Positions 1-16,100 of a DNA stretch of 53,656 nt are shown here, one piece after another (within the stretch, counting starts at the first letter, position 1; the number at the start of each line of letters is the position of its first letter). The notes below the pieces were generated by a model. It made no database searches and had not been told where the DNA came from. It saw only the letters and a program-made list of their open reading frames with translations. Both the position numbers and the translations under genes were made by a program. This DNA is from Smithella sp. SCADC (GTDB taxonomy: Bacteria; Desulfobacterota; Syntrophia; Syntrophales; Smithellaceae). The stretch covers positions 1-53,656 of the forward strand of contig JQDQ01000168.1 of NCBI GenBank assembly GCA_000747625.2. Reading direction: 5' to 3'.

Positions 1-311
1 CGTCTCGGGTACATGATCCAGGTGCCATAAATATCCGCCTGCTGCTTTTATCCATTTCCGGAAAAATTTAACAGCCCCGCTTCTTTCCACCACATTAATA
101 TCGCCAATACCAAAGAGATAGCGAAGACGATAGCCATGATGTCATGGACAGTTGCCAATCCTTTCAGTCCGCCGAAGATGGCTCCTAAAAAGTTCAGTTC
201 TTTGAACATCATCCCCAATCCGGTGAGACATAAAAGCAGGCAGGAGATGGCTAGCATCCAGTGTACAAATCTCTCATATGCTGAAGTTACTTTAACCATT
301 TTTTTACTCAT
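1..311 (-). CDS. fdnI: Formate dehydrogenase gamma subunit (cytochrome b); runs off the window edge and is frameshifted near 55-69
   Basis: ATG at 311 after GGAGG; ERFVHW..LTGL and second heme His (VHD) in TM helices; frame stops at 48 but the -1 frame (57..1) continues KWIKAAGGYLWHLDHVPET, the expected FdnI continuation. Confidence 0.85.
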
Positions 312-312
312 T

Positions 313-1119
313 TTATGCACCTCCCTGCTTCTTATTGTCTTGATCGTAATGCTCCGGATGGGGTCTGTGCGGCCCGTGGATGAAGTAATGTAACAACGAA
401 CCGCCTACCACACCGCCTGCGGCCAGCAGGCTCAGGGGCTTTAACAAGTTTTTCCACAGACCAATAGACTGCGGCACCTTCGGATCTGTCGGCAGTTCGT
501 CGTAAACTTCCGGCTTGAACTGCAGAACGTAAATAACATGCGTGCCGCCGACAAATTTATCTCCGTAAACGTTGGCGTCGCCGCCCAGTTTTTCAACCTT
601 CGCGTAAGCTTTCTTGATCATCTCGTCTTTCGGGCCGATAGTCAGTGCGCCGGTAATGCAGGATTTAACACAAGCCGGCGGAAGGTTTTCCTGAATGCGG
701 GAATAACACAAATCACATTTGGAAACCTTTTCCGTCTCTTTGTTATAGCGTGGAACATCAAACGGACAGGCCGAAATGCACTCTTTGCAGCCGATGCATT
801 TGTCACGATGAACACCCACCGTCTTGATGTCTGTATAATAAAGAGCGCCGCTGGGGCAGACCTTTACGCAGGAAGCGTCGGTACAGTGCATGCAGCCGTC
901 CTTGCGGAAGATCCACTGGAATTTGCCGTTTGCATCTCTATGTTCCTGAAAGCGCATCAGCGTCCACGTATTCCACTGCAAGTCGGGCGGATTCTGATAA
1001 GTGCCTATTTGTTTTGTCGGCAAACCGGGCAGTTCATTCCACTGCTTGCAGGCGACCTGGCAACCGCGGCAGGCGGTGCACAGGGTTGTATCAATCAATT
1101 TTACAAGTTCGTTTCCCAT
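313..1119 (-). CDS. fdnH: Formate dehydrogenase beta (Fe-S) subunit with C-terminal membrane anchor
   Basis: CTACRGCQVAC, CMHC..CVKVCP, CIGCKECISACP, CDLC..PACVKSC motifs; C-terminal TM; lies between alpha and gamma. Confidence 0.95.
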   Translation of the reverse strand: MGNELVKLIDTTLCTACRGCQVACKQWNELPGLPTKQIGTYQNPPDLQWNTWTLMRFQEHRDANGKFQWIFRKDGCMHCTDASCVKVCPSGALYYTDIKTVGVHRDKCIGCKECISACPFDVPRYNKETEKVSKCDLCYSRIQENLPPACVKSCITGALTIGPKDEMIKKAYAKVEKLGGDANVYGDKFVGGTHVIYVLQFKPEVYDELPTDPKVPQSIGLWKNLLKPLSLLAAGGVVGGSLLHYFIHGPHRPHPEHYDQDNKKQGGA

Positions 1120-1130
1120 AGTTTATTCTC

Positions 1131-4100
1131 CTATAACTTGGTTACGTTGACCATGAACGCCTTGTACTCGGGACAGAAGGTATTCGCGTCACCAACGCTT
1201 GGGGTTAAAAAGTTCGTGCTGTCATCCTTGGTGTCCTTGGGAAAGAGCCAGCCGTAATTGAAGGGCATGCCGACCTGATGCACGGTTTTTCCTTCAATCG
1301 TAAACGGTTTGAGACGCTGGGTCACCATGGCCACACAGGATGTGACTGCCCCGCGAACCGAACTGACCTTAACGTGTTCACCGTTTTTAATTCCTAATTT
1401 CTCAGCCAGTTGGCCGCCGATTTCTATATATTGTTCCGGCTGCGCTTCCAGGAGCCACGCCTGCCAACGGGTTAACGCGCCGGAGCACCAGTGCTCCGTA
1501 CAGGAATACGTTGTGCAGACATACGGGAATTTTTCGCTCGCCCTGGCTATCTTGTCCATGTCACTGTTGAAAATCTCAATAGCCGGATTGATGAGCTGGC
1601 CGGACATTGGATTTTTAGCGAGCGGTCCTTCCAGCGGTTCATAATGTTCCGGGAAGGGACCATCAGCCATATTTTGGCCGAAGAAAGCGCCCAGACCGTC
1701 TCTTTGCATGATGAAGGGATACTTGCCTTTGGCTTTATCCGCCATTGGCGGCCAGGGGCCATCGGGCACATCGCCCACCCATTTATCGCCCTTCCATTCC
1801 AGAATATTGCGTTTGGGATTGTAGGGCTTGCCGTTTAGATCAACGGAGCAACGGTTGTAAAGGATGCGGCGGTTAACCGGCCATACATAAGACCAGTTGG
1901 GATAAAGACCAAGACCTGTCGGATCATCCTTACCGCGCTTGGCCATCTTGTTTTCACCATCCGCGCCGAATTGACCGCAATGGACCCAGTTGCCGGAACA
2001 AGTTGAACCGTCGTCCTGAAGGTTGCCGAAACCCGGCACGCACTGACCTTTTTTGTATAAGATCTTCGTGCCTTTTGCCTTGTCTTCGATAACCGTATCT
2101 TTCAGGAAGCGGCCGTTCATCTGTTTGGCCACTTCCAAAGCATCAAAGTGTCCCTGCTTATCCAGATAGTCCCAGTAAAGATTCAGGATGGGTTCCGTAT
2201 GAACGCCGCCTTCCTTGGCATACAGCTTTTTAACGGCATCCATGATTTTGATCGTAATTTCGCCCACGGGAATGCACTGGTCCGGTCCGTCACAGGCCTT
2301 CTGCTTCCACTGCACCATGCGGCCGGAGTTGGAAATGCTGCCTTCCTTTTCCATGGAGGCGGAGGCGGGCAGCAGAAACACTTCCGTTTTGATATTCTTG
2401 GTATCGACACCGGGACCTCTCCAGAACTGGTAGGTTTCATTGTCGAAAATGTTTTCGCCGATGAGCCAGTCGAGTTTTTCGAGTCCCTTGCGCACCTTGC
2501 CGGTATTGGGCGAACTTACGGCGTTATCCGCGCCAATGCAGAAGAATCCCTTGATCTTGCCCTTGTACATCTGGTCGAACATATGCATCGTGGAATAGTG
2601 TTTCCCGTCGTCTATCTTGGGCAGCCAATTATAGCCGAATTCGTTTTCCTTGGTGGCTTTGTCACCGAAGAATGCTTTCATGAGGCTGTTAAAGAACTTC
2701 GGATAATTCTGGTAGTAGTTTGCTGACTGGGGATCTTTGGATACAGGCGTATATTTTGTTAAATATTTTTCCAGCGTATCGAGCGAAGCTGACGGCTGTT
2801 TCATATAACCGGGCAGGATGTGATACAAAATCGCCTGATCGGTCGAACCCTGAACATTGGGTTCGCCGCGCATGGCGTTGATGCCGCCGCCCGCGATACC
2901 CACATTGCCCAACAGCATCTGGACGAGTGTCATGGCGCGGATGTTCTCTACGCCAACGGTATGCTGCGTCCAGCCCAGGGCGTAGCACTCCGTACCTGCC
3001 TTGTCCGGAACGCCGGTGGAGCTATATATCTCGTAAACCTTGAGGAGATTTTCCTTGGACACGCCGGTAATGCTGGAAACCTTATCGAGCGTGTAGCGGG
3101 AATAGTGCGTTCTCATTAACTGGAACACACAGCGGGGATGTTGAAGTGTCATATCCCGCTGAGGAATGCCGTTGGCATCTTTATCAAAGGCCCATGTATC
3201 CTTGTTGTACTTACGCTTACCGGCATCGTAACCGGAGAAAAGACCGTCTTTAAAATAATAGTCCTTGCTCACGATAAATGAAGCGTGGGTGTAATTGAGG
3301 ACATATTCCTTAAAATATTTTTTCTTCTCAATAATGTAGTTGATCATACCGCCCAGGAAAGGGATGTCCGTGCCGGAACGAAGCGGCACATGGAAATCAC
3401 AGCGGGCGGATGTCCGGGTAAAGCGCGGATCGACATGAATCACCTTGGCTCCTTTTTCCTGGGCCTTCGTGACCCACCTGAAGCCCATGGGGTGATTCTC
3501 CGCCATGTTGCTCCCCATGATGAGGATGACATCAGCATTTTTCATGTCAATATAATGGTTTGTCATGGAACCGCGTCCGAAAGACTCGGCCAAAGCTCCG
3601 ACGGATGGGCTATGGCAAACCCGGGCCTGGTGATCCATATAGACGATGCCCAGAGCGCGCGACATAGCGGTTATCAGCCAGCACTCCTCGTTGTCCACAT
3701 TGGAACTGCCATAATGGCCGATCGCTTCGCAGCGGTTGACCAGTTCGCCCTTGGCATTTGTCTTGATGAAATTCTTGTCGCGGGTGTCCTTGATCAGTCT
3801 GGCCATCCGGGGCAGTGCCCACTCCCAGTCCTTTTCCTCCCATTTGTCACCGCCGGGCCTGCGATAGAGAACCTTGCGCAGGCGGTGTTCGTTGGCCTCC
3901 GTCATCTGAAAGAAACCGGACCCCTTGGCGCAAAGCGCTCCCTCGTTGATCGGATGGTCGGCGTCGCCTTCAATGTTGATGATCTTGTTGGTTGCCTTGT
4001 CCGTGCTACAAACGAGCCCGCAGCCGCAGGAACAGTAACAACAAATCGTCGTTGTCTGTTTGGCGATCTTGACGCGGTTCATCTTGTTCAATTCGTCCGC

Positions 4101-4202
4101 ATAAGCCCGAGTCGGACTGAGATTGAACCCCAGAGACGACAGGGCAACCCCGCCTCCGACAGCCCCGGACACCTTCAAAAAACCTCTTCTGCTGATGTTC
4201 AT
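1131..4202 (-). CDS. fdnG: Formate dehydrogenase-N type alpha subunit, Tat-exported, Cys (not Sec) ligand
   Basis: SRRGFLK Tat motif; CCYCSCGC..C Fe-S motif; HQARVCHSPSV active site; RGEPNVQGSTD; C-terminal PEYKAFMVNV. Confidence 0.97.
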   Translation of the reverse strand: MNISRRGFLKVSGAVGGGVALSSLGFNLSPTRAYADELNKMNRVKIAKQTTTICCYCSCGCGLVCSTDKATNKIINIEGDADHPINEGALCAKGSGFFQMTEANEHRLRKVLYRRPGGDKWEEKDWEWALPRMARLIKDTRDKNFIKTNAKGELVNRCEAIGHYGSSNVDNEECWLITAMSRALGIVYMDHQARVCHSPSVGALAESFGRGSMTNHYIDMKNADVILIMGSNMAENHPMGFRWVTKAQEKGAKVIHVDPRFTRTSARCDFHVPLRSGTDIPFLGGMINYIIEKKKYFKEYVLNYTHASFIVSKDYYFKDGLFSGYDAGKRKYNKDTWAFDKDANGIPQRDMTLQHPRCVFQLMRTHYSRYTLDKVSSITGVSKENLLKVYEIYSSTGVPDKAGTECYALGWTQHTVGVENIRAMTLVQMLLGNVGIAGGGINAMRGEPNVQGSTDQAILYHILPGYMKQPSASLDTLEKYLTKYTPVSKDPQSANYYQNYPKFFNSLMKAFFGDKATKENEFGYNWLPKIDDGKHYSTMHMFDQMYKGKIKGFFCIGADNAVSSPNTGKVRKGLEKLDWLIGENIFDNETYQFWRGPGVDTKNIKTEVFLLPASASMEKEGSISNSGRMVQWKQKACDGPDQCIPVGEITIKIMDAVKKLYAKEGGVHTEPILNLYWDYLDKQGHFDALEVAKQMNGRFLKDTVIEDKAKGTKILYKKGQCVPGFGNLQDDGSTCSGNWVHCGQFGADGENKMAKRGKDDPTGLGLYPNWSYVWPVNRRILYNRCSVDLNGKPYNPKRNILEWKGDKWVGDVPDGPWPPMADKAKGKYPFIMQRDGLGAFFGQNMADGPFPEHYEPLEGPLAKNPMSGQLINPAIEIFNSDMDKIARASEKFPYVCTTYSCTEHWCSGALTRWQAWLLEAQPEQYIEIGGQLAEKLGIKNGEHVKVSSVRGAVTSCVAMVTQRLKPFTIEGKTVHQVGMPFNYGWLFPKDTKDDSTNFLTPSVGDANTFCPEYKAFMVNVTKL

Positions 4203-4495
4203 GAACTTCTTCTCCTTTCCCGAAATTTAAAAATCTCCATTTAAGAGCGCATCTTCCCAAAACTTGAAAAGATGCTGTTACAGCTAAACTTAGCTATTGC
4301 TGCCGGCGATCACGACCGGCGCAAGTTGCGTGTTCAGAAAATTATGAAGAATGCGGGTTTGGATTTTGACAACCAAACACGGCCTCCTTCCTGTTCATTG
4401 CCGCCTTTCCGCGGCAGAACATGCTGGAAGCTAGTTGGTCTGCGGGAGGAAAGAAGCGGCAGGACTATCCGTTCGGAACCTTACAGGTTCCTTAA
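4203..4495 (-). promoter_or_regulatory. Highly structured 5' leader of the fdn operon with an internal SD and short uORF candidates
   Basis: Several hairpins on the minus strand (GGAACCT-GTA-AGGTTCC; TGCCGC-GGAAAG-GCGGCA; GCCGG-T-CG-TGAT-CG-CCGGC; TAGCTA-AGTT-TAGCTG; GCATCTTTTCAA-GTT-TTGGGAAGATGC); AAGGAGG at 4389-4383. Confidence 0.6.
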
Positions 4496-4848
4496 CGATA
4501 GATCATGTGCGATAGTTTTTAAATAAAGCTGACATTGCCTTTCCCTTTTTTTATCTATATCAATTGCGGGATACCGTGACCGAAAGTCATATAAAAGTCA
4601 ATATGTTATATAAAGCATAAATACAAAAAAGACATCAGCGTTTAATTTTTTATCAATGATAATAATAAGATAAATGGTATCGCGTTCGTTGGATAGGGGA
4701 TAGTGATTATATCTTAAAGATATACGAATTATTCCTAATATTTATTTATGTTTTTTTTGATAATAATGTTAAAATAACAAAAAATTAAAGGTCACGTACC
4801 TGATGTTATATTTTAAACCTCTAATAAAATCATACAAAGGAGGATGTC

Positions 4849-5058
4849 ATGAAGTACGGTGCAAGAAATCAAATTGTCGGGAAAGTGGAAAGCATTAAGA
4901 AAGGCGCGGTCATGTGCGAGGTTAAAGTAAAAACCGCGGGCGGCGATTTTATGGAATCGGTCATGACAACGAACTCGCTGAAAGAACTGGGCATTAAGAA
5001 AGGCGATAAGGTTAAAGTTGTGGTCAAAGCGGTAAATGTTTTGCTGGTCAAAGAATAG
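4849..5058 (+). CDS. mop: Molbindin / Mop (single TOBE domain) molybdate/tungstate-binding protein
   Basis: 69 aa; GARNQIVGKV..SVMT..S.KELG.K.GD.V.VVVKA; GGAGG SD. Confidence 0.92.
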   Translation: MKYGARNQIVGKVESIKKGAVMCEVKVKTAGGDFMESVMTTNSLKELGIKKGDKVKVVVKAVNVLLVKE

Positions 5059-5148
5059 TAAAAATTTAAGAGGCACCTTTCTTAGCGAATGGCGGCTCTT
5101 TTTTTGCAATTCTTTTAAAAGGGAAGGAAAATACCTTCCCCGGAGAAT

Positions 5149-5466
5149 CTAGCAACTGCAACATGATCCGCAATTGCCGCCTGTTGCAGGAGCGAGGCTG
5201 GACGTTAATTTAAATCCGGACCCGTGTGGCGTATCCAAAAAATCAACACTGATCGGTTTTGCTTGATTCAATATGTCCTTATCAATAACAAATTTTATTC
5301 CTTTTTCTTCAAACACTTCATCATCGCTGCCCGGATCATCCAGAGCCATTCCCAAAGCGGGACCGGCGCAGCCCATAGACAATGTAATCCGCACAGCGGA
5401 ATCGGTTTTCTTTTCCCTAATGAAGTCTTTAATTACTTCTGACGCCTTTTCTGTAACGGTGAGCAT
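5149..5466 (-). CDS. HesB/IscA-like Fe-S biogenesis protein, Cys form of the HesB-like selenoprotein family
   Basis: MLTVTEKA, MGCAGPALGMALD, C-terminal CGSCCSC; GAGGAGG SD. Confidence 0.88.
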   Translation of the reverse strand: MLTVTEKASEVIKDFIREKKTDSAVRITLSMGCAGPALGMALDDPGSDDEVFEEKGIKFVIDKDILNQAKPISVDFLDTPHGSGFKLTSSLAPATGGNCGSCCSC

Positions 5467-5706
5467 TAAATTTCCTCCTCTTTGAGTGAATATTGTTATT
5501 CACCTTTGCTCGTAACATATCCATGCTTCATCATAAGTCAATCAAATTATTGTTTTTGTATATCTTGCCCAGGAAAAACGCGAATTGACTTGAAAATAAA
5601 ATGAATAATACATCCATATATATTCCTTTTAGTTATTTGACATATTCTTTCATATCATATATAGCTGCCGCGAATCAATGATTATTATCCAATGGAAGGA
5701 GAATAT

Positions 5707-6144
5707 ATGGCTGAAAATATAGCAAGCAAAGAGTGGGAACCGAAAATCGCTGCCATCGTCTGCAACTGGTGTACTTACGCGGGCGCCGATCTGGCGGGCA
5801 TCAGCAGAATTCAGTATCCGCCGAATGTGCGTGTTATCCGCGTTCCCTGCACGGGAAGAATAAATCCTTTTTATATTGTCAAGGCCCTTCAGGAAGGCGC
5901 CGATGGCGTTCTGGTTTCCGGTTGTCATCCGGGTGAATGCCACTATATATCGGGAAATCTGGTTGCGCGCCGCAAGTTTGCGATGCTGAAAAGTTTTCTG
6001 AATTACATCGGCATAGAAGGCGACAGAACCATGTTTACCTGGGTGTCTGCTTCTGAAGGCGATCGTTTTGCCCAGGTCATCAAAGGCGTTACGGCCAAGG
6101 TCAAGGCGCTGGGACCTGCGAGCAAGTTGGTAAAGAAACTTTAG
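5707..6144 (+). CDS. mvhD: MvhD/FlpD [2Fe-2S] subunit (methyl-viologen-reducing hydrogenase delta), stand-alone
   Basis: CNWCTYAGAD, RVPCTGR, GADGVLVSGCHPGECHY, WVSASEG; ATG 5707 after AAGGAG. Confidence 0.92.
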   Translation: MAENIASKEWEPKIAAIVCNWCTYAGADLAGISRIQYPPNVRVIRVPCTGRINPFYIVKALQEGADGVLVSGCHPGECHYISGNLVARRKFAMLKSFLNYIGIEGDRTMFTWVSASEGDRFAQVIKGVTAKVKALGPASKLVKKL

Positions 6145-6186
6145 GAAGAAAACGGTTTACGGCAGGGGAAAAGGGACAGATTTTAT

Positions 6187-6372
6187 CTATTTTATCTTCT
6201 TTCTCAGCCGTCCTTGCCCTCGAGATTCGATACGACGGTTGATTTTTGTTTCTATTTTGTCAATGAACCGATTGCTGTCCGTTAATTGAACTCGCTGCAG
6301 CGATTTGCGTCTCAGTTCCCATTTGCCTTTGGGAATAGAATCTTTCACCCAAGCCTCATAACGCTCCTCGTA
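6187..6372 (-). pseudogene. C-terminal remnant of an IS200-like/REP-associated tyrosine transposase (RAYT)
   Basis: Open minus-strand frame with no start: YEERYEAWVKDSIPKGKWELRRKSLQRVQLTDSNRFIDKIETKINRRIESRGQGRLRKKIK*, resembling RAYT C-termini; followed by AAATCTGTCCCTTTT and preceded by GGGTCAGGTCATGCAATATT, end motifs I associate with such elements. Confidence 0.6.
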
Positions 6373-6403
6373 ACAACGAAAACTAATATTGCATGACCTG
6401 ACC

Positions 6404-6534
6404 CTAGTACCTACTTGCAGAGAAACGATGTCATCTCGAAGGAACGGAGTGACTTAGAAATCTGCGAGATCACTAAATAGATTTCTCCCTGCGGTCAAAA
6501 TGACAAATCACGAACTTATGCAAGTAGGTACTAG
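6404..6534. mobile_element. MITE-like palindromic element (family A core) with perfect 16-bp terminal inverted repeats
   Basis: CTAGTACCTACTTGCA...TGCAAGTAGGTACTAG around core GTCATCTCGA..AGAAATCT-spacer-AGATTTCTC..AAATGAC (6430-6504). Confidence 0.8.
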
Positions 6535-6656
6535 GAGGCTGTCTGAGAACTCAAAAAATGATTTCTCGACCACATTATATTGTATTTGTTAACATAATAA
6601 CACACTATATATTGTGGTAATAAATTTGACTTAGCTATTCTCGGACAGCCTCCTAG
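6531..6656. mobile_element. Non-autonomous MITE with IS5/IS1182-like ends at a CTAG site
   Basis: CTAG-GAGGCTGTCTGAGAA...TTCTCGGACAGCCTC-CTAG (1 mismatch), AT-rich interior; shares the CTAG at 6531 with the preceding element. Confidence 0.75.
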
Positions 6657-6728
6657 GCATCCTCTTCCCTTCATTCTGCGGCGAACTCCGGACGCACTAT
6701 ACACAGTATTTCGGTAACCAAGATTGAC

Positions 6729-6774
6729 TTGACATGAAGCGAAAAAAGAATATAATCGCTTCATAATATGAAGC
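6729..6774 (+). promoter_or_regulatory. Sigma70 promoter of the fic gene overlapped by a palindromic operator
   Basis: TTGACA(6729)-16 nt-TATAAT(6751); ATGAAGCGA-N13-TCGCTTCAT plus a third half-site ATGAAGC at 6768. Confidence 0.75.
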
Positions 6775-6789
6775 AATAAACGGTGACAA

Positions 6790-7899
6790 ATGACTCAGTA
6801 TTTATGGAAACGTCCTGATTGGACTCATTTCAGATGGAAGAATGAAGACATTCTTTTTGCGCTTGGTGAATGCCGGTTGCTGCAGGGAAAACTCTTGAGT
6901 AAAGTGACCGATCTTGGATTTCTCCACGAAAACCAGGCCCAGCTTGAAATATTAACTGGGGAGACCTTAAAAACCGCCTTAATCGAAGGCGAGAGCCTCA
7001 ATGCTCAGACCGTTAGATCGTCGGTTGCAAGAAAGCTCGGGCTCCTTTCGGCGGGACTGAGAGTAGACCATTATATTGACGGACTCGTCTCTATTCTCCT
7101 TGATGCCACAAAAAATCATGATGAACCTCTTACACAGAAACGTCTTTTCGGCTGGCAGGCGGCACTTTTTCCGACGGGCTATTCCGGTATCCACAAAATC
7201 AGAGTAGGTAAATGGCGGGGGGATAAGCCCATGCGCGTCGTGTCGGGTCCCGTCGGTCATGAAAATATTCATTTTGAAGCGCCTCCCTCTGAGCGCATAC
7301 CCGTGGAAATAGGCTGGTTTCTTGAATGGTGGAAGGTGAGCCGGGGCAATTTGGAAGGATTGTTGCGGGCGGCCATTGCTCAATTCTGGTTTGTGACCAT
7401 CCATCCATTCGAGGATGGCAACGGCCGTATCGCCAGAGCCTTGACCGATATGGCCCTGTCACAGGATGACCGGCAATCGATAAGGTATTATAGTCTTTCT
7501 TCTCAAATTATGGCAGAGCGGAATGCCTATTATAATGTTCTTGAATACTGCCAGAAGCATGATGGCGACATTACGGAATGGCTCAATTGGTTTCTTGGCT
7601 GTTTCTGCAGGGCCATCAAGAGTTCTGAAGAAATGTTGGCGACAGTCCTTAATAAGGCCTCATTCTGGAAATCACATTCGAACTTTTCACTAACGGAGCG
7701 GCAGCGTAAAGTCATAAACCGGTTGCTCGATGCAGGAAAGGGCGGTTTTACAGGTGGACTTACAACCAAAAAATATGTTTCTCTGGCCAAAGTCAGCAGA
7801 GCTACAGCCTTTAGGGAGATAGAGCACCTTATGAAACTTGGAATACTTAAACAGAATCCCGGCAGAGGCAGGAATGTAAGCTATGATTTGAATTGGTAG
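6790..7899 (+). CDS. Fic family protein (DUF4172-type N-terminus, Fic domain, C-terminal winged HTH)
   Basis: W..PDW..F.W N-terminus; HPFEDGNGRIAR Fic motif; VSRATAFREI HTH. Confidence 0.92.
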   Translation: MTQYLWKRPDWTHFRWKNEDILFALGECRLLQGKLLSKVTDLGFLHENQAQLEILTGETLKTALIEGESLNAQTVRSSVARKLGLLSAGLRVDHYIDGLVSILLDATKNHDEPLTQKRLFGWQAALFPTGYSGIHKIRVGKWRGDKPMRVVSGPVGHENIHFEAPPSERIPVEIGWFLEWWKVSRGNLEGLLRAAIAQFWFVTIHPFEDGNGRIARALTDMALSQDDRQSIRYYSLSSQIMAERNAYYNVLEYCQKHDGDITEWLNWFLGCFCRAIKSSEEMLATVLNKASFWKSHSNFSLTERQRKVINRLLDAGKGGFTGGLTTKKYVSLAKVSRATAFREIEHLMKLGILKQNPGRGRNVSYDLNW

Positions 7900-8043
7900 C
7901 AGATGTGAATTGAGTCAGTGAAATGAAGAACACCTGTTCGCCGATTATCTCGATATGAATTTTAAATTACGTCATTAATCATGTTCTCCGAGTGCTTTAA
8001 TGTTTTTTGACTAATCTCCATAAAATGTGCTAAACATCTTAAT

Positions 8044-8172
8044 ATGTCCTCCGCTGGCGGAGGTGTCCCGAAGGGACGGAGGTGGACAAAGAAATGTTGG
8101 ACTGTAGTTCGAATGAATATTAAAGCTTAATTGAAAAATCCACCCCCTTGATCCCCCGCCGGCGGGGGACAT
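8044..8172. repeat. Palindromic intergenic repeat, family B, copy 1
   Basis: ATGTCCTCCGCTGGCGGAGGTGTCCCG..GGGACGGAGGTGGA-spacer-TCCACCCCC..CCCCCGCCGGCGGGGGACAT. Confidence 0.85.
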
Positions 8173-8187
8173 AAAAGGAAAACGGCT

Positions 8188-9831
8188 ATCAACAAGATTT
8201 TCGGAAATACAACAGGTTTACGCGCCGCGCAAATAAAACAGATTGAACGCCTCGGCCATAAAGGTATCCCGCCGGAAAATATCATCACCAACGATCTGGC
8301 CCGGCAATTATCTTCTATTTCCCGTGAAATCAACCGGCAAATCGGCCTGCTCATCAGCCGCAAGGGCGAAATCAGTTCCGTTATCGTCGGCGATCATAAA
8401 AGTATTTTAATTCCCAATCTGGACGGATTCCGTTCTTCCTCTCTGCGCTTTAAAGGATTGCGGCTGATTCACACGCATTTAAACGGCGAGGAACTTTCCG
8501 GCGAGGATTTAACAGACCTGTCCCATCTGCGGCTTGATCTCATCGGGGCGCTGGAAGTCAAGGAAGACGGCTCTCCCGGCGTGATGCACCGGGCGCATCT
8601 CATCGCAGAAAATCCAGAGGGGAACTACTGGCTGATAATGAAGCCTGAAGAACCGCACCGGATGCAGATAAATTTTCTTTCCTTCATACAGGCGCTGGAG
8701 GATGAGTTTGCAAGGAAACAGAAATCACGGAAAATTGACGCGGCGGAAAAAGCCATTCTTCTGCGTGTGGAGAAGAATCCGCTCGCCGGAGCTGAAACAT
8801 CGCTTGCGGAACTGGCCCAACTGGCGCGCACCTGCGGCGTCGAAGTTTTTGATTCCATCGTGCAGTATCGTCCTCAACCCGATCCTAAATTCATGGTCGG
8901 ACGGGGAAAGCTATCCGCCATCGATCTGCGGGCTTCGCAGATCGGCGCCAATATGCTCATTTTCGACCACGAGCTGACGCCGGCACAGGCCCGTTCCATC
9001 AGCAATTTTACCGGATTGAAAATTATCGACCGCACACAGGTCATTCTGGATATTTTCGCCAGACGCGCGCACAGCCGCGAAGGAAAAATTCAGGTGGAAC
9101 TGGCCCAGCTCAGATACCGCCTGCCGCGCCTGACTCATGTGGATACTTCCCTTTCCCGTCTGGCCGGCGGCATCGGTGGCATTGGTCCCGGCGAAACAAA
9201 ACTGGAAATTGACCGCCGCCGCATCCGCGAGCGTATTCACCGCCTGGAAAAGGATTTAAAAGCGATAACAAAATCACGGCGGCAACGCTCCAGCAGAAGA
9301 GAAAAAACAGGACTGCCCATTATTTCCATCGTCGGTTATACCAACGCGGGCAAATCCACGCTGCTCAACACCCTGACCCAAAGCTCGGTTTTAGTTGAAG
9401 ATAAACTCTTCGCCACGCTGGACACAAAAAGCGCCCGCCTGCGTTTTCCTCAGGACACGGAAGCGATTATCACCGACACGGTCGGCTTTATCCGCAGTCT
9501 GCCGGGGGAATTATTCACCGCTTTCCGGGCTACACTGGACGAACTGCTCGATGCCGACATTCTCCTGCATGTTATTGATGCGAGCAGCAGTCAGTTTGAA
9601 GAACAAATCGCCGCCGTGGAAAAAATTCTGGAAGATCTGGAAATTAACGGCAAGCCAACCATCCGGGTGCTCAACAAATCCGACCGCGTTGCCGACAAAG
9701 AAATGCTTCAAAATCTCTGTCGTCGTCTGGATGCTGTCGCTGTTTCGGCGCTGGATAAACGAACTCTTTTCGTATTGATGGAAAAAATAGAATCGTTGCT
9801 TGCAGGTAAACACAACTTTTCTCCGCGCTGA
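8188..9831 (+). CDS. hflX: GTPase HflX, long N-terminal form; probable non-canonical ATC start at 8188
   Basis: GYTNAGKST, DKLFATLD, DTVGF, NKSD motifs and GPGETKLE; frame open from 8152 with INKIFGNTTGL..Q...ERL conserved-looking N-terminus; AAAGGA upstream of the ATC. Confidence 0.93.
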   Translation: MNKIFGNTTGLRAAQIKQIERLGHKGIPPENIITNDLARQLSSISREINRQIGLLISRKGEISSVIVGDHKSILIPNLDGFRSSSLRFKGLRLIHTHLNGEELSGEDLTDLSHLRLDLIGALEVKEDGSPGVMHRAHLIAENPEGNYWLIMKPEEPHRMQINFLSFIQALEDEFARKQKSRKIDAAEKAILLRVEKNPLAGAETSLAELAQLARTCGVEVFDSIVQYRPQPDPKFMVGRGKLSAIDLRASQIGANMLIFDHELTPAQARSISNFTGLKIIDRTQVILDIFARRAHSREGKIQVELAQLRYRLPRLTHVDTSLSRLAGGIGGIGPGETKLEIDRRRIRERIHRLEKDLKAITKSRRQRSSRREKTGLPIISIVGYTNAGKSTLLNTLTQSSVLVEDKLFATLDTKSARLRFPQDTEAIITDTVGFIRSLPGELFTAFRATLDELLDADILLHVIDASSSQFEEQIAAVEKILEDLEINGKPTIRVLNKSDRVADKEMLQNLCRRLDAVAVSALDKRTLFVLMEKIESLLAGKHNFSPR

Positions 9832-9955
9832 TTTTGTGCTATGGAGAGTTAATAAAGCTGTCATTCCCGCGAAGTGCCCGTCGGGGTAAATCCCGATTCG
9901 AAGCTGGGCGTATGAGACTGTGTCATAATTGCAAATATGGATTGTGTGCAATAAG

Positions 9956-10090
9956 TAATGTCCCCCGCTGGCGGGGGCAGGGGGTGGATTCTTTTAAAAC
10001 ATATCTAATTTTGGCCAGTTACGCATTACATGAATTTTATCCACCTCCGTCCCGATTGCATCGGGACACCTCCGCCAGCGGAGGACATTA
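9956..10090. repeat. Palindromic repeat family B, copy 2 (inverted relative to copy 1)
   Basis: TAATGTCCCCCGCTGGCGGGGG..GGTGGA-spacer-TCCACCTCCGTCCCGATTGCATCGGGACACCTCCGCCAGCGGAGGACATTA. Confidence 0.85.
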
Positions 10091-10118
10091 AAATGAATAT
10101 GGAAAAAGCAGTACATTC

Positions 10119-10679
10119 ATGAATAAGGAATTTGTTGAAATACGCTGGCATGGCCGCGGCGGCCAGGGCGCCATAACGGCGGCAAAGATTGTTGCCGGAG
10201 TTGCCTTTATTTCCGGTTATTCAGGGGTTGTTATGGCCCCGACTTTCGGCACGGAGCGCCGTGGAGCGCCGGTTACGACATCTCTGAAAATATCCAAAGA
10301 AAAAATTTACGATTTATCACCCATAGAAGAACCTGATATTATTGTTGTTCTTGACCATCTGCTGCTTTCCGAAGGGGATGTAACCTGCGGACTCAAACCC
10401 GGTGGAATCATCGTTTTGAACACACCAAAAGCTTTTGAAACATACAATTTCAAAAATTACAGGCTGGCAACCGCAGACATAACGGCTATATCGGTAGAGG
10501 CAGGCCTTCCTCATGGCATAATCAATACGGGGATCATCGGTTCCTTTGCGAAAGCCACAAATCTCCTGAATTTTGATACTCTGACTAAAGGCATTGAAGA
10601 GGAATTCAGGACAAGAAATCCCCAAAAGAACTCATTAGCCGCCAAAATAGCCTTTGAAAAAACTGTGACGGGAGGTTGA
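10119..10679 (+). CDS. porC: 2-oxoacid:ferredoxin oxidoreductase gamma subunit
   Basis: EIRWHGRGGQGA, FGTERRGAPV. Confidence 0.9.
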   Translation: MNKEFVEIRWHGRGGQGAITAAKIVAGVAFISGYSGVVMAPTFGTERRGAPVTTSLKISKEKIYDLSPIEEPDIIVVLDHLLLSEGDVTCGLKPGGIIVLNTPKAFETYNFKNYRLATADITAISVEAGLPHGIINTGIIGSFAKATNLLNFDTLTKGIEEEFRTRNPQKNSLAAKIAFEKTVTGG

Positions 10680-10681
10680 AA

Positions 10682-10990
10682 ATGGGCACGAGAAACTACA
10701 GAAGAAAAACTTCCCACAGCGAGCCGGGGCCGGGTGACGGCGGAAGGACCGGTTCGTGGAGGGTGGAGCGGCCGGTAATAAATACAAGCCTCTGCATTCC
10801 CTGCAAGAGGAAAGCCGAGGCCTGTTTCATCTGCTGGTTGCTCTGTCCGGATGTTGTCATCTCCCGGACGATACCGCCGGAAATCGATCTGGAATACTGC
10901 AAGGGATGCGGTATCTGCGCTGAAGAATGCCCGACCAAAGCCATCACGATGGTGGACGAAGCGGCATTCTCCAAAGAGGAAAAGGATTAG
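10682..10990 (+). CDS. porD: 2-oxoacid:ferredoxin oxidoreductase delta (2x[4Fe-4S]) subunit
   Basis: TGSWRVERPV, CFICWLLCPD, YCKGCGICAEECP; ATG after GGAGG. Confidence 0.9.
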   Translation: MGTRNYRRKTSHSEPGPGDGGRTGSWRVERPVINTSLCIPCKRKAEACFICWLLCPDVVISRTIPPEIDLEYCKGCGICAEECPTKAITMVDEAAFSKEEKD

Positions 10991-10995
10991 GCGCC

Positions 10996-12195
10996 ATGCA
11001 TATTATAGAAAACGGAAATGTTGCCGCAGCTTTGGGCGTTATGCTATGCCGTGCCAATGTTATTGCCGCCTATCCCATTACTCCTCAGACTCCTCTGACA
11101 GAAAAACTCTCCGAGTATGTGGAATCCGGTAAAATGAAAGCCGAATACATTCCGGTCGAGAGCGAGCATTCCGCTCTGGCCGTGTGCATCGCCGCATCAT
11201 CAGCCGGAGGAAGATCCTTTACCGCCACCAGCGCCAACGGGCTGCTCTATATGCACGAACAGGTTCAGTGGGCGGCAGGCGCCAGACTTCCCATTGTGAT
11301 GTGCGTCGTCAATCGCGCGGTAGGCGCTCCCTGGAACGTCTGGAATGACCAGCAGGATTCGATTTCACAACGCGATACCGGCTGGATACAGATATACTGC
11401 GCTGACCATCAACAGATAATTGATTCGGTCATCAAAGCCTATTGGCTCGCGGAGAAGGTAAGCATCCCGATCATGGTCTGCTATGACGGCTATATTTTAT
11501 CGCATACCTACATGCCCTTTGATGTGCCGGATCAGGAAAAGGTCGATGCCTTTCTGCCGCCGTTTAAACCGGATTACGCTCTGAATCCCGATGAGCCTGC
11601 CAATCTCAATACGGTAACGCTTCCTGACGTCAGGCTTGATGTCAGGGGTGAGCTCGCTCACGGCTATATGGAGATCAGATATCTGCTTCATGAAGAGATG
11701 CGAAAGGCGCTTACCGTGGCCGCGGAAGCGGAAAAAAGATTTGCCGGTATATTTGGCCGGGGCGGCGACCCTTATATAGAACCTTATCTTTGTGATGATG
11801 CCGAATATGTTGCGGTCGGACTAGGCTCTCTGACTTACCAGTTGCGTGTTTGCGTGGATGCCTTGAGAAAAGAAGGCATCAAAATCGGCGTGATGGGCGT
11901 TCGTTTTTACCGGCCATTCCCGGATGTTGCACTGGCCAATGCCCTGAAAGGGAAAAAAGGCGTGATCGTTTTTGAAAAGGCATTAAGTTACGGTTATGAA
12001 GGAGCTCTGGTTTCGGATTTAAAATCGGCGCTTTATGAAAATCTTGCCGGTACCGGCGCTCTGCCTGTTGTACAAAATTTTATCGCGGGAATAGGCGGCC
12101 GCAATATTTTGACAGGAGATTTGACACATAATCTCCGGGCAGCGACAAAAGGCAGGGTTGCGCAGGAACCCGTTTGGATAGGGCTCGATTTCTAG
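10996..12195 (+). CDS. porA: 2-oxoacid:ferredoxin oxidoreductase alpha subunit
   Basis: GNVAAA, AYPITPQT, VESEHSA, FTATSANGL, NRA; start set to ATG 10996. Confidence 0.9.
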   Translation: MHIIENGNVAAALGVMLCRANVIAAYPITPQTPLTEKLSEYVESGKMKAEYIPVESEHSALAVCIAASSAGGRSFTATSANGLLYMHEQVQWAAGARLPIVMCVVNRAVGAPWNVWNDQQDSISQRDTGWIQIYCADHQQIIDSVIKAYWLAEKVSIPIMVCYDGYILSHTYMPFDVPDQEKVDAFLPPFKPDYALNPDEPANLNTVTLPDVRLDVRGELAHGYMEIRYLLHEEMRKALTVAAEAEKRFAGIFGRGGDPYIEPYLCDDAEYVAVGLGSLTYQLRVCVDALRKEGIKIGVMGVRFYRPFPDVALANALKGKKGVIVFEKALSYGYEGALVSDLKSALYENLAGTGALPVVQNFIAGIGGRNILTGDLTHNLRAATKGRVAQEPVWIGLDF

Positions 12196-12203
12196 GAGAA
12201 TCA

Positions 12204-13106
12204 ATGCAGGCGAAGACTACAATTTTAAGTTTACCGGCAGAAGAATTTGTCCATCCGGGAACAAGAGCATGTACCGGATGCGCCCTGGCCATCGCCTACC
12301 GGATAGGCCTCAAGGCTCTGGGTAAGGATACGATCCTTGTTGTGCCGCCGAGTTGTCTTACGGTGCTTCAGGGACTCTTTCCGATTGCCTCGACAAAGCT
12401 TCCCTGCCTGAATGTAACCTTTGCCTCCACAGCCGCCGCCGCCACAGGAATTCTGGCCACACTGAAGGTACAGGGCAGGGATAAGATTAAAGTGGCCGCA
12501 TGGGCAGGAGACGGCGGAACGAGCGACATCGGTTTGCAGGCTTTATCGGGCGCGGCAGAACGTGGCGATAAATTCATCTATCTTTGCTACGATAATGAAG
12601 GGTATATGAACACCGGTGTTCAACGCTCAGGCACGACCCCGATCGGCGCCATCACCGCCAATACGCCGTTCAAGGGAAAGCTGCAGCAGAAAAAAGATGT
12701 GCCGGCAATCATGGCGGCGCATAAGTTAAGCTATGTTGCCACCTGCTCTGCCGCCTACCCGCTGGATCTTTTCGACAAGATAAGAAAATGCGTTGATCTG
12801 CCGGGCACCAAATACATTCACATCCATATTCCCTGCCCGCCGGGCTGGGGATATGACCCTCGCTATGGAATAAAAATCGGACGGCTGGCCGTGGAAACCG
12901 GATATTATGATCTCTATGAAATAATCAACGGCGAGTTCAAATTGACTGCCGCATCAGAAAAGCTGGTGGAAAAACACAAGCTGATACCGGTGCGTGAATA
13001 CTTCCGCACGCAGTCGCGTTTTAAAGTTCTTACGGATGCACAAATAACCGATATTCAAAAAGAGATCGATAAGAAATGGAATGAGTATTACAAAAAGGAA
13101 GATTGA
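12204..13106 (+). CDS. porB: 2-oxoacid:ferredoxin oxidoreductase beta (TPP-binding) subunit
   Basis: ACTGC, GDGG..DIG.QALSG, DNEGYMNTG.QRS, PCPPGW; ATG after AGGAG. Confidence 0.9.
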   Translation: MQAKTTILSLPAEEFVHPGTRACTGCALAIAYRIGLKALGKDTILVVPPSCLTVLQGLFPIASTKLPCLNVTFASTAAAATGILATLKVQGRDKIKVAAWAGDGGTSDIGLQALSGAAERGDKFIYLCYDNEGYMNTGVQRSGTTPIGAITANTPFKGKLQQKKDVPAIMAAHKLSYVATCSAAYPLDLFDKIRKCVDLPGTKYIHIHIPCPPGWGYDPRYGIKIGRLAVETGYYDLYEIINGEFKLTAASEKLVEKHKLIPVREYFRTQSRFKVLTDAQITDIQKEIDKKWNEYYKKED

Positions 13107-13148
13107 CACTATAAATTATCAAAGAGTAATCTTTAAACGGTCAAAGCG

Positions 13149-16100
13149 ATGAGCACCAAAAATAAAATTCATCAGCATCCTGAACCCGGCTCCCGAAAGA
13201 TTATGTTTCGCGGAGATACTGTAACCTTTACGCTTTCATTGGATAAAGAATCGCAAGGTAAAGCCTGGGTGCGCACCAATATAGGCCATGCCTCCATAGC
13301 CAGAAAAGCCGTTATCGATTCGCTGGACAGGAATTTGCCATTGCAGGGAACTGAATGGTTCGATATCCCCATGCGACAGGTTGATTCTCATCATTTTTCG
13401 GTAATGCTGCCTTTGAGTGAGGTGGGACATTTCGAAGCAAAATGCTTTTTCATGTCCGCCGGCAAAACAAAACCTCTCTGGCCGGAAGGCGATAACATCA
13501 CCATCAATGTGGAACCGGCAGATTCGTGTTGCGCTAATATCATTTACAACGCTTTTGTAAGGCAATTTGGGAAAAACAAAAATGGACAACATTCTCCAGA
13601 TGATTCAGACAAATTGTGCATCTTGCACCTTGATAAAAAAGAATATACCGTTATTCCCCGATCAGGCACTTTTCGCGATTTGATTGCCGAACTGGATTTC
13701 ATTGTCGGCAAACTTGGTTGTCGATTTGTGCACCTTCTTCCCATTTCTCCGACACCGACAACTTACGGCCGCATGGGAAGGTTTGGAAGCCCTTACGCGG
13801 CTTTGCATTTCACAGGAATCGATCCGGCGCTCGCTGAGTTTGATATTAAAGCCACCCCCCTCGAGCAATTTGGCGAACTGCTGGATGCCATTCATGCCCG
13901 CAAAGGCAAACTGATGATCGACATCGCCGTTAATCATACCGGTTGGGCTGCCAGCCTTCACGAAACCCATCCTCACTGGTTGCTACGCGACCATACCGGC
14001 GATATCCGCAGGCCCGGCGCGTGGGGCGTTGTCTGGCAGGATTTGACCAGTCTTGATTATTCTCAGCAGGACCTTTGGAAATATATTGCTCATGTATTTC
14101 TGACATGGTGCCGTCGCGGGGTAGACGGATTTCGATGCGACGCCGGATACATGATTCCATTGCCTGCATGGACCTATATTATCGCTATGGTCAGGGAACA
14201 GTTTCCGGAAACAATTTTTCTACTGGAAGGACTGGGAGGCAGAATATCGGTAACCCGGGATTTGCTCAATCATGCCGATTTTAATTGGGCATATTCAGAA
14301 CTTTTTCAGAATTACGATCGGATACAAATCGAAAATTATCTGCCTGAAGCTATCGACATATCAAATACAGACGGAATTGCGGTGCATTACGCGGAAACCC
14401 ACGACAACAACAGACTGGCCTCCCGCTCCAGGATCTATGCCAGGATGCGCACCGCCCTGTGCGCGCTGTGCTCACATCAGGGAGCATTCGGATTTGCCAA
14501 CGGAGTAGAATGGTTTGCTGACAAAAAGATAAGCGTTCATGAAGCCCATCCGCTAAACTGGGGAAGTGCGGAAAATCAGGTAGATCATATTCGCAGGCTG
14601 AATATATTGCTCCGCTCCCATCCGGTTTTTTTTGAAAAAGTTGATTTAAAACTTATTCAAAATGGCGAAGGCAACGTTATTGTATTGCTGCGACGACACG
14701 TTCCGTCCGGGAAAAAACTGGTCATCGTTGCTAACCTGGACGATAAAAAAACGGCAGAAGCAATTTGGGTATTTCAGGCAGACATGGCTATCGGCCCATG
14801 GATTGATCTCTTGACCGAAAGAAAGATAGAGGTAATAACCGGCCCGGATTATCATACATGCAAACTTTCTCCCGGCGAGGTGTTGTGTCTGACAGTAGAC
14901 GAAAAAGATTTAGATTTGCTCAAGCAACCGGAAAGCCTTTCTTTTCTCCCTGAACGTTTATTGTTCCGGAAGTTCAAGGTGAAAGCGATGGAAGTGTTCT
15001 GCTTCTATCACGGAACACAAGATATATCTGACTTCGACTTAATTACGGCAACAAAACAGTTAAGTGATAATCCTGTGGAATTTTGTCGTTCTTTTAATCC
15101 GGATAACCAGGAACACAGGGTTATTTTCTGGCAATGGCCCCGTGACCTCAAACGCGAAGTCATTCTGCCACCCGGACATTTTCTGCTGGTGAAGGCGGAC
15201 AATCCCTTTCGCGCCACCATCATTGACGGATATGAAGAAAATGAACGGGTAATCGTCAGCGAGGAAAGCCTGCCCCAAAATGACGGAACTCATTTCCTCC
15301 TGTTTACGCCCTGTAAAGATATTTCGACAGCAACGCATCTTACATTACGAGTCACTGTATATGAAGGACAAAGAACCCGTCATGAAGATTCCTCTCTACT
15401 TTTCTTAACCGAAACGCCATGTCCGGAATCACCTGCCATGATCAAACGTAACGATCTCATGCAGGGCAATCATATATTTTTATCCACAAACGGCATCGGT
15501 GGCATGTGCAGAGCGAACATAAAGTGGGGGAAACTGAACAGTAAATATGACGCGCTTTTGGCAGCCAATCTCAATCCGCTTTCCCCGGAAGACAGACAAA
15601 TTATGTTTACGCGCTGCCGGGCATGGATTGTCTATCAGGGGTATTCCCAGGAAATTTGTTTTGACAATCTTGATCATTTTAGGACTGAAGGCAACCAGGG
15701 ATTCTGGAAATACGAAATTCCAACCGGACAGGGCGAGCGAATTGACCTTCTGATCGCGGTAAAAATGATTCAGGGGGAGAATACCGTTCTGCTTGAGTTT
15801 CATCGTTTGTCTGCAAAATCGATCAAGGGAAAACTCGACGACAAAGAATCCGTCCAGTTGATTTTACGACCTGACATAGAAAACAGAAATTTTCATGAAA
15901 ATACCAAGGCATACAAGGGACCGGAAAATGCCTGGCCTGCCGCTATCACCATCGAACATGACGCATTTATTTTTACACCTTCGCCGGACAGAAAATTGAA
16001 GCTTCATATTTCAAAGGGAGTATTTGTCTCTCAACCGGAATGGTATTATATGGTTCACCGCCCTGCGGAAAAAGAACGTGGTCTGGATCCCGATTCAGAT

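Follow-up and report, generated by a model that had tools for sequence, protein, structure and literature searches.

The window analyzed here is a 53,656-nt stretch of Smithella sp. SCADC, lying on contig C165 of assembly G000 (in our numbering, other G-numbers are genomes of relatives and C-numbers are contigs). Near its left end, a group of genes encodes cysteine (Cys) forms of proteins from selenocysteine (Sec) families, namely the formate dehydrogenase subunit FdnG, a HesB/IscA-like protein and a stand-alone MvhD, together with the molbindin Mop. On the minus strand, fdnG (1131-4202) encodes a 1023-aa Cys-type catalytic subunit of a periplasmic formate dehydrogenase (FDH). It scored 1390 bits against TIGR01553 (cut-off 814.2), carries PF10518, PF04879, PF00384 and PF01568, and has the motif HQARVCHSPS with its Cys codon TGC at 3615-3617; the score over the curated cut-off, the twin-arginine translocation (Tat) signal, the Fe4S4 and molybdopterin domains and the Cys-His motif (ARVCHS) mark it as an FDH-N alpha subunit. 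An AT-rich intergenic region of 645 bp (4203-4848), whose mop-proximal part is partly conserved among module copies, separates fdnG from the divergent mop (4849-5058, plus strand). This gene encodes a 69-aa molbindin with a single TOBE domain (TIGR00638, 65.8 bits, cut-off 55) that matches ModG 1h9j (E 2.6e-19) and Mop II 1gug, so by sequence Mop is a member of the molbindin family, with oxyanion binding predicted.

The HesB/IscA-like gene (5149-5466, minus strand) encodes a 105-aa Cys form of the selenoprotein family IscA_HesB_Se (NF038090, 109.8 bits, cut-off 85), to which its G-[U/C]-x-G-P site (SMGCAGP; Cys33, codon 5368-5370), its C-terminal Cys-rich tail and its score assign it. Divergent from it, 225 bp away, lies the stand-alone Cys-type copy of mvhD (5692-6144, plus strand; PF02662, 175.1 bits over positions 1-123 of 123), with the motifs CNWCTY and SGCHPGECH and a TGT Cys codon at 5923-5925. 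Its true start is likely ATG 5707, placed after AAGGAG at 5696-5701, and this ribosome-binding site and ATG are conserved across the loci of stand-alone Cys mvhD. The GC content drops from 0.50-0.52 over 1-4000 to 0.42-0.45 over 4001-8000. A first-pass annotation had reported Cys codons in ARVCHS of FdnG, MGCAGP of the HesB-like protein and MvhD, and the clustering of the three genes beside Mop with hesB and mvhD divergent; translations, Sec-site alignments and coordinates of the open reading frames (ORFs) confirmed both points.

That annotation had proposed a replacement set for selenium starvation, with Cys being the default if the genome lacked Sec machinery. The machinery was present. In this metagenome-assembled genome (MAG; 244 contigs, 3.19 Mb, 94.7% complete, 8.22% contamination), a well-formed tRNA-Sec was found on C191, while a tRNA-SeC call on C241 was set aside for its poor cloverleaf. 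SelA (601 bits), SelB (377 bits) and SelD (382 bits, with one in-frame TGA) were detected, and in-frame TGA codons occur at the conserved Sec sites of FdnG, FdhA and MvhD. Judged by these genes, the host decodes UGA as Sec.

TGA-containing paralogues, which had been suggested as a check for each of the three genes, exist for FdnG and MvhD, and also for FdhA, with its Cys form on C243, the adjoining contig; for the HesB-like protein, no second gene was found in the assembly by protein and family searches. Two full-length FdnG paralogues with one TGA each lie on C58 (76% identity) and C187 (54%), and TGC 3615-3617 aligned exactly with the TGA of both (HQARV-U/C-HSPS). On C58 the operon is complete, fdnG(Sec)HI-fdhE, and the genes before it (TetR, two peroxiredoxins) differ from those of the window. 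MvhD has three copies in the assembly, and the one on C169, within an operon of the order HdrL(1475 aa)-MvhD-FlxC-like-HdrC-HdrB, is 88% identical to the window protein and reads G-U-HPGECH where the window reads G-C-HPGECH, its TGA being aligned with TGT 5923-5925. The Sec position assigned earlier to MvhD held for the GCH cysteine but not for CNWCTY, whose cysteines are Cys in all three in-genome copies; the alignments place the Sec site of this lineage at GCH.

Across the genome, a scan for Sec/Cys pairs (43,487 TGA-centred windows against 21,726 ORFs, with 61 Cys-aligned best matches) gave many off-frame artefacts, and the genuine pairs, picked by eye, were only MvhD, FdnG and the cytoplasmic FdhA (TGA on C155, C192 and C226; Cys on C243). 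The Cys members of these pairs all lie on C165 or C243, and two particular genes would start no more than 5 kb apart in a genome of 3.19 Mb by chance with p ~0.003. Folds of the 60 nt after TGA or Cys codons, used as a test for Sec insertion sequences (SECIS), gave z-scores of -1.3 to +1.0.

The relation between C165 and C243 was read from the fdn operon. Downstream of fdnG lies fdnH, the iron-sulfur subunit of FDH-N (313-1119, minus strand; Fer4_11, Form-deh_trans, TIGR01582 265.6 bits), 88% identical to FdnH of the C58 Sec operon, followed by the 5' part of fdnI (1-404, minus strand), a cytochrome b subunit gene that runs off the contig start and scored under the TIGR01583 cut-off because it is partial. 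Residues 4-120 of the C58 FdnI align to window 404-54 and residues 122-140 to 57-1 in another frame, with the frame shift near 54-57. The final 57 nt resemble the C58 copy (95% identical) and are therefore repeat, and the frame change at 1-60 is probably an assembly effect there; fdnI of C58 and C187 are 98.8% identical. C243 begins with FdnI residues 200-243, and since fdnI is complete on both C58 and C187, this fragment is most simply part of the window operon. C243 thus very probably continues the window. Its order is fdnI 3' end, fdhE, FdhA (Cys, 901 aa), a small HAD-like gene, YedE (TIGR04112 'putative selenium transporter', 507 bits, cut-off 200), a gene without an assigned family, and a periplasmic NiFe hydrogenase truncated where the contig stops. 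With the two contigs joined, every Cys member of the in-genome Sec/Cys pairs would fall in one locus.

A conserved box, GAATAAT-N11-ATATTCC, precedes mvhD, and TTGACA and TATATA come after it (5602-5664, plus strand); written out, the sequence common to the loci is GAATAAT-N11-ATATTCCTTTTAGTnATTTGACA, with TATATA 15 nt on. This 15-nt spacer is the reason why the mvhD promoter was missed in a consensus promoter scan. In 10 of 12 loci, conservation extends over the 70 nt that precede stand-alone Cys mvhD, and the gene upstream of the box varies, being Mop, HesB or unrelated (G004:C33, G006 and 8_bin.29). An nhmmer model made from 10 box sequences matched the complete G000 assembly at five places with E no higher than 10: the window (2e-12), C174:4549-4579 (0.28, in or by an ORF), C241:1776-1815 (1.3), 83 bp before a lysR_Se gene, C243:4652-4690 (3.3), 27 bp before yedE, and C6 (8). 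LysR_Se denotes LysR_Sec_metab (NF040786, cut-off 250), the family of HrsM. That two of the four non-self matches stand before lysR_Se or yedE has a chance of ~1e-7.

A second model, which included the C241 and C243 sites, yielded a new site 51 bp before a second yedE on C197 (E 0.24), in a modA-yedE intergenic region. Among relatives outside the training set, the box was located before yedE in G016 and G022, between divergent lysR_Se and yedE in the case of G016; near lysR_Se in G045; before a rhodanese gene and a truncated mvhD in G004; and before a HesB gene of a second lineage (hesB2, described below) in UBA2280. The 21-nt core with up to 2 mismatches occurred in 5 of 151 genomes of the order, with 3 matches for a reversed control, and its exact and 1-mismatch matches came from G000, G006 and G176, each before Cys mvhD. 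A loose two-half-site regular expression was dropped at 295 genome matches, and stricter ones were uninformative too. Taken by sequence, these results suggest that the box is a candidate regulator site common to Cys mvhD, lysR_Se and yedE.

Synteny in relatives had also been proposed as a check, and the grouping of Mop, Cys mvhD, Cys hesB and Cys FDH genes does recur in congeners, in or beside a YedE/YedF/LysR_Se locus. The fullest module, on G011:C5, comprises Mop, mvhD(Cys), hesB2(Cys), a 200-aa gene, fdnGHI without TGA and FdhA without TGA, with LysR_Se 2.1 kb on, all within 14 kb. On G050:C6, mvhD(Cys), a HAD-like gene and Mop stand between LysR_Se and YedE, and a PF11823 carrier is present in this genome. 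Variants of the same grouping were seen in G013, G012, G004 and G045; LysR_Se is 0.7 kb from FdhA(Cys) in G013 and 3.3 kb from mvhD(Cys) in G045. Two further genes were observed at these loci. Just upstream of the G011 module (G011:C5:4888-7872) lies the gene of a 994-aa protein in which radical SAM, ArsM-like methyltransferase and MbdU-like (DUF5714) parts are fused, with no TGA and a weak box match before it, which may be another Cys form, related families being double selenoproteins. In G013 (C82:2244-5610), a PstSCAB-type ATP-binding cassette transporter sits between Mop and mvhD(Cys).

Mop was found in 9 of the 36 genus genomes (G000 with two copies, G004, G011, G012, G013, G022, G024, G045 and G050). 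Eight of these are among the nine genomes with stand-alone Cys mvhD, G006 having that mvhD without Mop, and in six genomes Mop is at most 0.8 kb from it. LysR_Sec_metab scored over its cut-off in 15 of the 36. G016 lacks the module; its YedF, LysR_Se and YedE genes adjoin, with lysR_Se and yedE divergent. UBA2280, BIN3, 8_bin.29 and G176 (of another genus) carry stand-alone Cys mvhD beside genes for a double-cubane protein and YedF.

In G000 itself, LysR_Se (274 bits) is encoded on C241, and a second Mop (94% identical) begins 27 nt after it; YedF scored 214.6 bits in this selenium-metabolism neighbourhood. The selenium locus after lysR_Se and Mop (C241:1898-10260) includes a VTT-domain protein, an arsenosugar-type glycosyltransferase, DUF3047, a fragment of an ArsS radical SAM (seleno)protein, a double-cubane reductase, YedF and a C-GCAxxG-C-C protein, and several of its genes have in-frame TGA.

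These neighbourhoods bear on a different explanation, in which the locus holds isoenzymes for another molybdenum/tungsten (Mo/W) regime, Mop stores the oxyanion, and Cys is incidental to selenium. FDHs are Mo/W enzymes, Mop matches solved molbindins and adjoins fdnG, and on C197 (22975-25199) a modA gene (TIGR01256, 161.5 bits) is divergent from the second yedE, which is 85% identical to that of C243. However, Mop accompanies stand-alone Cys mvhD in modules without FDH (G045, G050 and G024), the second Mop directly follows lysR_Se, and MvhD and HesB are not Mo/W proteins, yet their Cys forms lie in the same cluster. Furthermore, Rfam detected no family in the whole window at the gathering threshold, or in 4000-7000 at E up to 1, and no molybdenum cofactor (Moco) riboswitch. 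We judge a Mo/W locus of this kind to be improbable.

In an IQ-TREE tree of MvhD with 63 rows, the stand-alone, Mop-linked Cys genes formed a clade of 12 rows (support 92/81), the Cys genes in HdrL operons one of 7 rows (91/93) and the Sec genes in HdrL operons one of 18 rows (83/66), in which the Sec mvhD of G000 pairs with that of G016 (99/88). The stand-alone Cys genes are 89-97% identical across species. MvhD of the HdrL operon is Sec in 14 genomes and Cys in 6, and an extra stand-alone Cys mvhD occurs in 7 of the 14 Sec-operon genomes vs 0 of the 6 Cys-operon genomes. In G011 (90% complete) and G012 (85%), the stand-alone gene is present and an operon copy was not found; a partial mvhD of G043 was left untyped.

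Full-length FdnG proteins of the genus fall into type 1 (76-80% identical to the window protein) and type 2 (53-55%), all with TGA except the window and G011 module copies; G050:C23 was left untyped for N runs at the Sec site. In a FastTree tree, the window gene is at the base of type 1 and the G011 module gene is nested in type 2. The Cys FdhA genes of G000, G013, G012, G004 and G023 form a clade (84-100% identity) next to Sec genes at 70-72%, and the Cys FdhA of G011 belongs to another lineage at 49-51%. Since both FdnG and FdhA come from separate lineages, Cys forms of different descent have been gathered in the same type of cluster, and the Cys FDHs of the module are of independent origins.

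HesB-like proteins were matched in 36 of 41 genomes. Within the genus, the best copy has TGA in 17 genomes and Cys in G000, G015, G019, G009, G020, G023 and G017. Cys33 of the window protein (G-C-AGP) aligned with U of G-U-SGP in 22 relatives' genes, so that, with the TGA codons aligned to the window Cys of FdnG and MvhD, the earlier statement that relatives carry Sec at these positions holds for the three families. Conserved flanks of relatives' Sec hesB were not found in the G000 assembly, and a Sec hesB is thus recorded as 'not found' there, which does not imply its absence. Within 1.5 kb on either side of hesB in 29 relatives' loci, there was no Mop, MvhD, FdnG or Fic gene. Non-conservation of the grouping, first suggested by these loci, was overturned by the second, deeper lineage hesB2 (57-62% identical, always Cys), which directly follows stand-alone Cys mvhD in G011, G012 and G013, follows a 5'-truncated mvhD in G004 and precedes mvhD in UBA2280. 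In G004 (C75:9191-9640), hesB2(Cys) and FdhA(Cys) flank the gene of a 149-aa protein that stands alone and carries a SelB winged-helix domain (PF09107).

The Cys copies might instead be an evolutionary by-product, transferred from Sec-poor relatives at a recombination hot spot in a lineage drifting to Sec loss, with no regulated backup. The patchy distribution of Mop is in keeping with this, as is the failure to find SelA in G023, G046, G009 and G048 (all at least 91% complete); those or close genomes carry Cys in place; the window HesB groups with the Cys genes of G023, G009 and G020 (support 0.86) and not with the Sec gene of the nearest species, G016, and the island is absent at this site in G016 and G021. 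A by-product is harder to reconcile with the stand-alone Cys mvhD genes, which form a separate clade with high identity across species and a conserved promoter region and which, where an operon copy was found, occur only alongside Sec operon copies, or with the box common to lysR_Se and yedE. We consider this origin unlikely.

The right side of the module was then defined by alignment. By HflX, the nearest species is G016 (96%), then G021 (90%). G016 has no Mop, stand-alone mvhD, Cys FdnG or Cys FdhA, and its hesB is Sec. Window 6708-14615 (7.9 kb, with Fic, HflX and the start of oxoacid:ferredoxin oxidoreductase genes) is 98.9% identical to the end of C198 (15524-23431), so that position 6708, the left end of the C198-like stretch, was taken as the boundary between the module and the conserved Fic-HflX backbone. 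Left of hflX, the DNA of G016 and G021 matches C198, not the module. It follows that the module is a strain-variable insertion or rearrangement, or that the MAG mixes two strains, and the duplicate 7.9-kb stretch likewise points to two strains in the MAG or a recent duplication. From these comparisons, the Cys gene set appears as an accessory, patchy island of a Smithella species.

Merging of Cys and Sec copies from different organisms into one bin would also give such pairs, and the contamination spread over 244 contigs, the two 98.9%-identical haplotypes and the same matches on C155 and C192 are what one would expect of it. Against it, a Sec operon copy and a stand-alone Cys mvhD also co-exist in six other genomes (G004, G006, G013, G024, G045 and G050), which speaks against binning as the whole cause; G006 is 100% complete with 1% contamination, these genes are on contigs of at least 81 kb in G006, G045 and G050, and C165, C169 and C187 are all nearest to G016. 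An artefact of this sort is very improbable.

Several other features lie at or beyond the island boundary. A dispersed repeat of ~200 bp (6169-6369) marks the right module edge, with 85-86% copies on C163, C120, C1, C217 and C236, and is followed, right of mvhD, by nested inverted repeats at 6380-6660. The Fic/DOC gene at 6729-7899 (DUF4172 + Fic) has a perfect TTGACA-16-TATAAT promoter match and is absent at this position in G016 and G021. Left of hflX, G000:C198:9712-15221, G016:C9 and G021 carry tandem paralogues of ~450-470 aa with no family match. Farther along the window, the bacterial gene at 49419-50588 matches 'methanogenesis marker 16 metalloprotein' (TIGR03287) at 139.8 bits, short of the cut-off of 364.

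The Sec/Cys paralogy, the exact alignment of the sites, the recurrent linkage with selenium genes and the common box were all observed directly. Our preferred interpretation, to which we give reasonable though limited confidence, is that the island is a selenium-starvation replacement set under a LysR_Se (HrsM-family) regulator. The variable island would gather Cys copies of host selenoenzymes, namely FDH-N (fdnGHI), MvhD of the HdrL/Flx-Hdr complex and the HesB-like protein, along with FdhA and Mop, and would be part of a selenium locus (YedE, YedF and LysR_Se) if, as we infer, C243 follows C165. When selenium is short, UGA would not be read as Sec, and the Sec enzymes would fail. LysR_Se acting at the common box would then lead to expression of Cys mvhD, with the divergent hesB, and of the yedE uptake genes; we infer this direction of regulation, as well as the dependence on selenium. 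The Cys FDHs could sustain formate metabolism at lower efficiency, and Cys MvhD may take the place of the Sec subunit in the Hdr complex.

The proposal of the first-pass annotation thus stands in so far as it rests on the paralogy, the recurrence by LysR_Se/YedE/YedF and the common box, and is weakened by the findings that the HesB-like protein has no Sec paralogue in the assembly and that no box turned up before fdnG or mop. The points that weigh against the replacement set are as follows. The HesB-like protein has no Sec partner in the assembly and is thus at most a putative backup in G000. Neither model nor pattern scans of G000 showed a box ahead of fdnG(Cys), mop or FdhA(Cys), and, taken singly, the box matches at lysR_Se and yedE are weak (E 1.3 and 3.3). 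LysR_Se of G000 is outside the window, on C241, so that its linkage to the module there is at most presumed, and the join of C165 to C243 is probable. The window FdnG is the sole Cys form of type 1 in the 36 genus genomes, a single case, and the one-sided Fisher p of 0.044 for the extra Cys mvhD overstates the association because the genomes are kin. Mop has the sequence of an ordinary molbindin, which also fits the Mo/W explanation. Finally, the MAG has 8.2% contamination and two haplotypes (C198 and window 6708-14615, 98.9%), and the FdhA(Sec) matches on C155 and C192 have the same scores, identity and query coordinates, being a duplicated stretch.

A broader proposal is rather doubtful and is offered tentatively. 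It would be a transferable 'selenium-independence cassette' in the lysR_Se-yedE locus of Smithellaceae, which recruits Cys copies of whichever selenoenzymes are needed, is switched by LysR_Se via the box, and would constitute the first defined bacterial regulon of this regulator. The molbindin and the box-linked ModA would take part in the response, because oxyanion-binding proteins could scavenge or sense selenium oxyanions beyond molybdate and tungstate.

A Cys backup set with a candidate operator would allow a direct test of bacterial LysR_Se targets, a role that in bacteria is only predicted in the text of Lin et al. 2015. Smithella propionate and alkane syntrophs depend on formate and hydrogen transfer via selenium- and Mo/W-dependent enzymes, and trace elements limit anaerobic digesters; the Cys set would supply marker genes for selenium limitation in methanogenic communities. 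It also shows Sec/Cys exchange taking place through the gain of gene modules, in addition to point replacement.

A literature search, with supplements outside its range, returned no paper on a Cys island in Smithella. In the Desulfobacterota, Desulfovibrio vulgaris switches between [NiFeSe] and [NiFe]/[FeFe] hydrogenases depending on selenium; to our knowledge this switch concerns hydrogenases only, and we know of no clustered multi-family Cys set there. When Methanococcus is depleted of selenium, Cys isoforms take over from its selenoproteins; the region between frc and vhc is where HrsM, a LysR-type regulator, is described as repressing these isoforms. Under the same shortage, expression of vhcD and pstS goes up, as does that of a YedE gene and of a gene for a molybdate-binding protein, and M. 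maripaludis is stated to have no Cys FDH (PMC11097638). As far as these accounts go, M. maripaludis and M. voltae (frc, vhc, hdrA, fwdB) resemble the present case in being Sec hosts in which several redox enzymes, the MvhD homologue VhcD among them, have Cys paralogues, with Cys genes around a common regulatory region, a LysR_Se-family regulator in the genome, and linked YedE, PstS-type and molybdate-binding genes (PMC11097638, PMC5322559). Unlike Methanococcus, Smithella is a bacterium, and its set consists of FDH-N, FdhA, Flx/HdrL-type MvhD and a HesB-like protein rather than hydrogenases, in an accessory, patchy island whose regulation is predicted.

Treponema primitia offers a bacterial Sec/Cys formate dehydrogenase pair, fdhF(Sec)/fdhF(Cys), in which selenium limitation raises the Cys transcript, but it involves one enzyme family, its Sec gene is controlled by translational coupling, and 'LysR' and 'molybd' have no occurrence in the main text of that report (PMC3892789). 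Lin et al. 2015 predicted LysR_Se (= HrsM), YedE, YedF and DUF3343 as selenium genes (PMC5322559; see also PMC9312934), and the same families (YedE, YedF, LysR_Sec_metab and the PF11823 carrier) surround the module described here. In the text of that article LysR_Se is tied to Sec-decoding genes, whereas Cys isoenzymes in a bacterial locus are not mentioned and 'Mop' does not occur (PMC5322559). By this comparison, the Smithella locus resembles the Methanococcus and Treponema systems and differs from them in being bacterial, multi-family, situated inside a selenium locus and accessory, and in including a molbindin.

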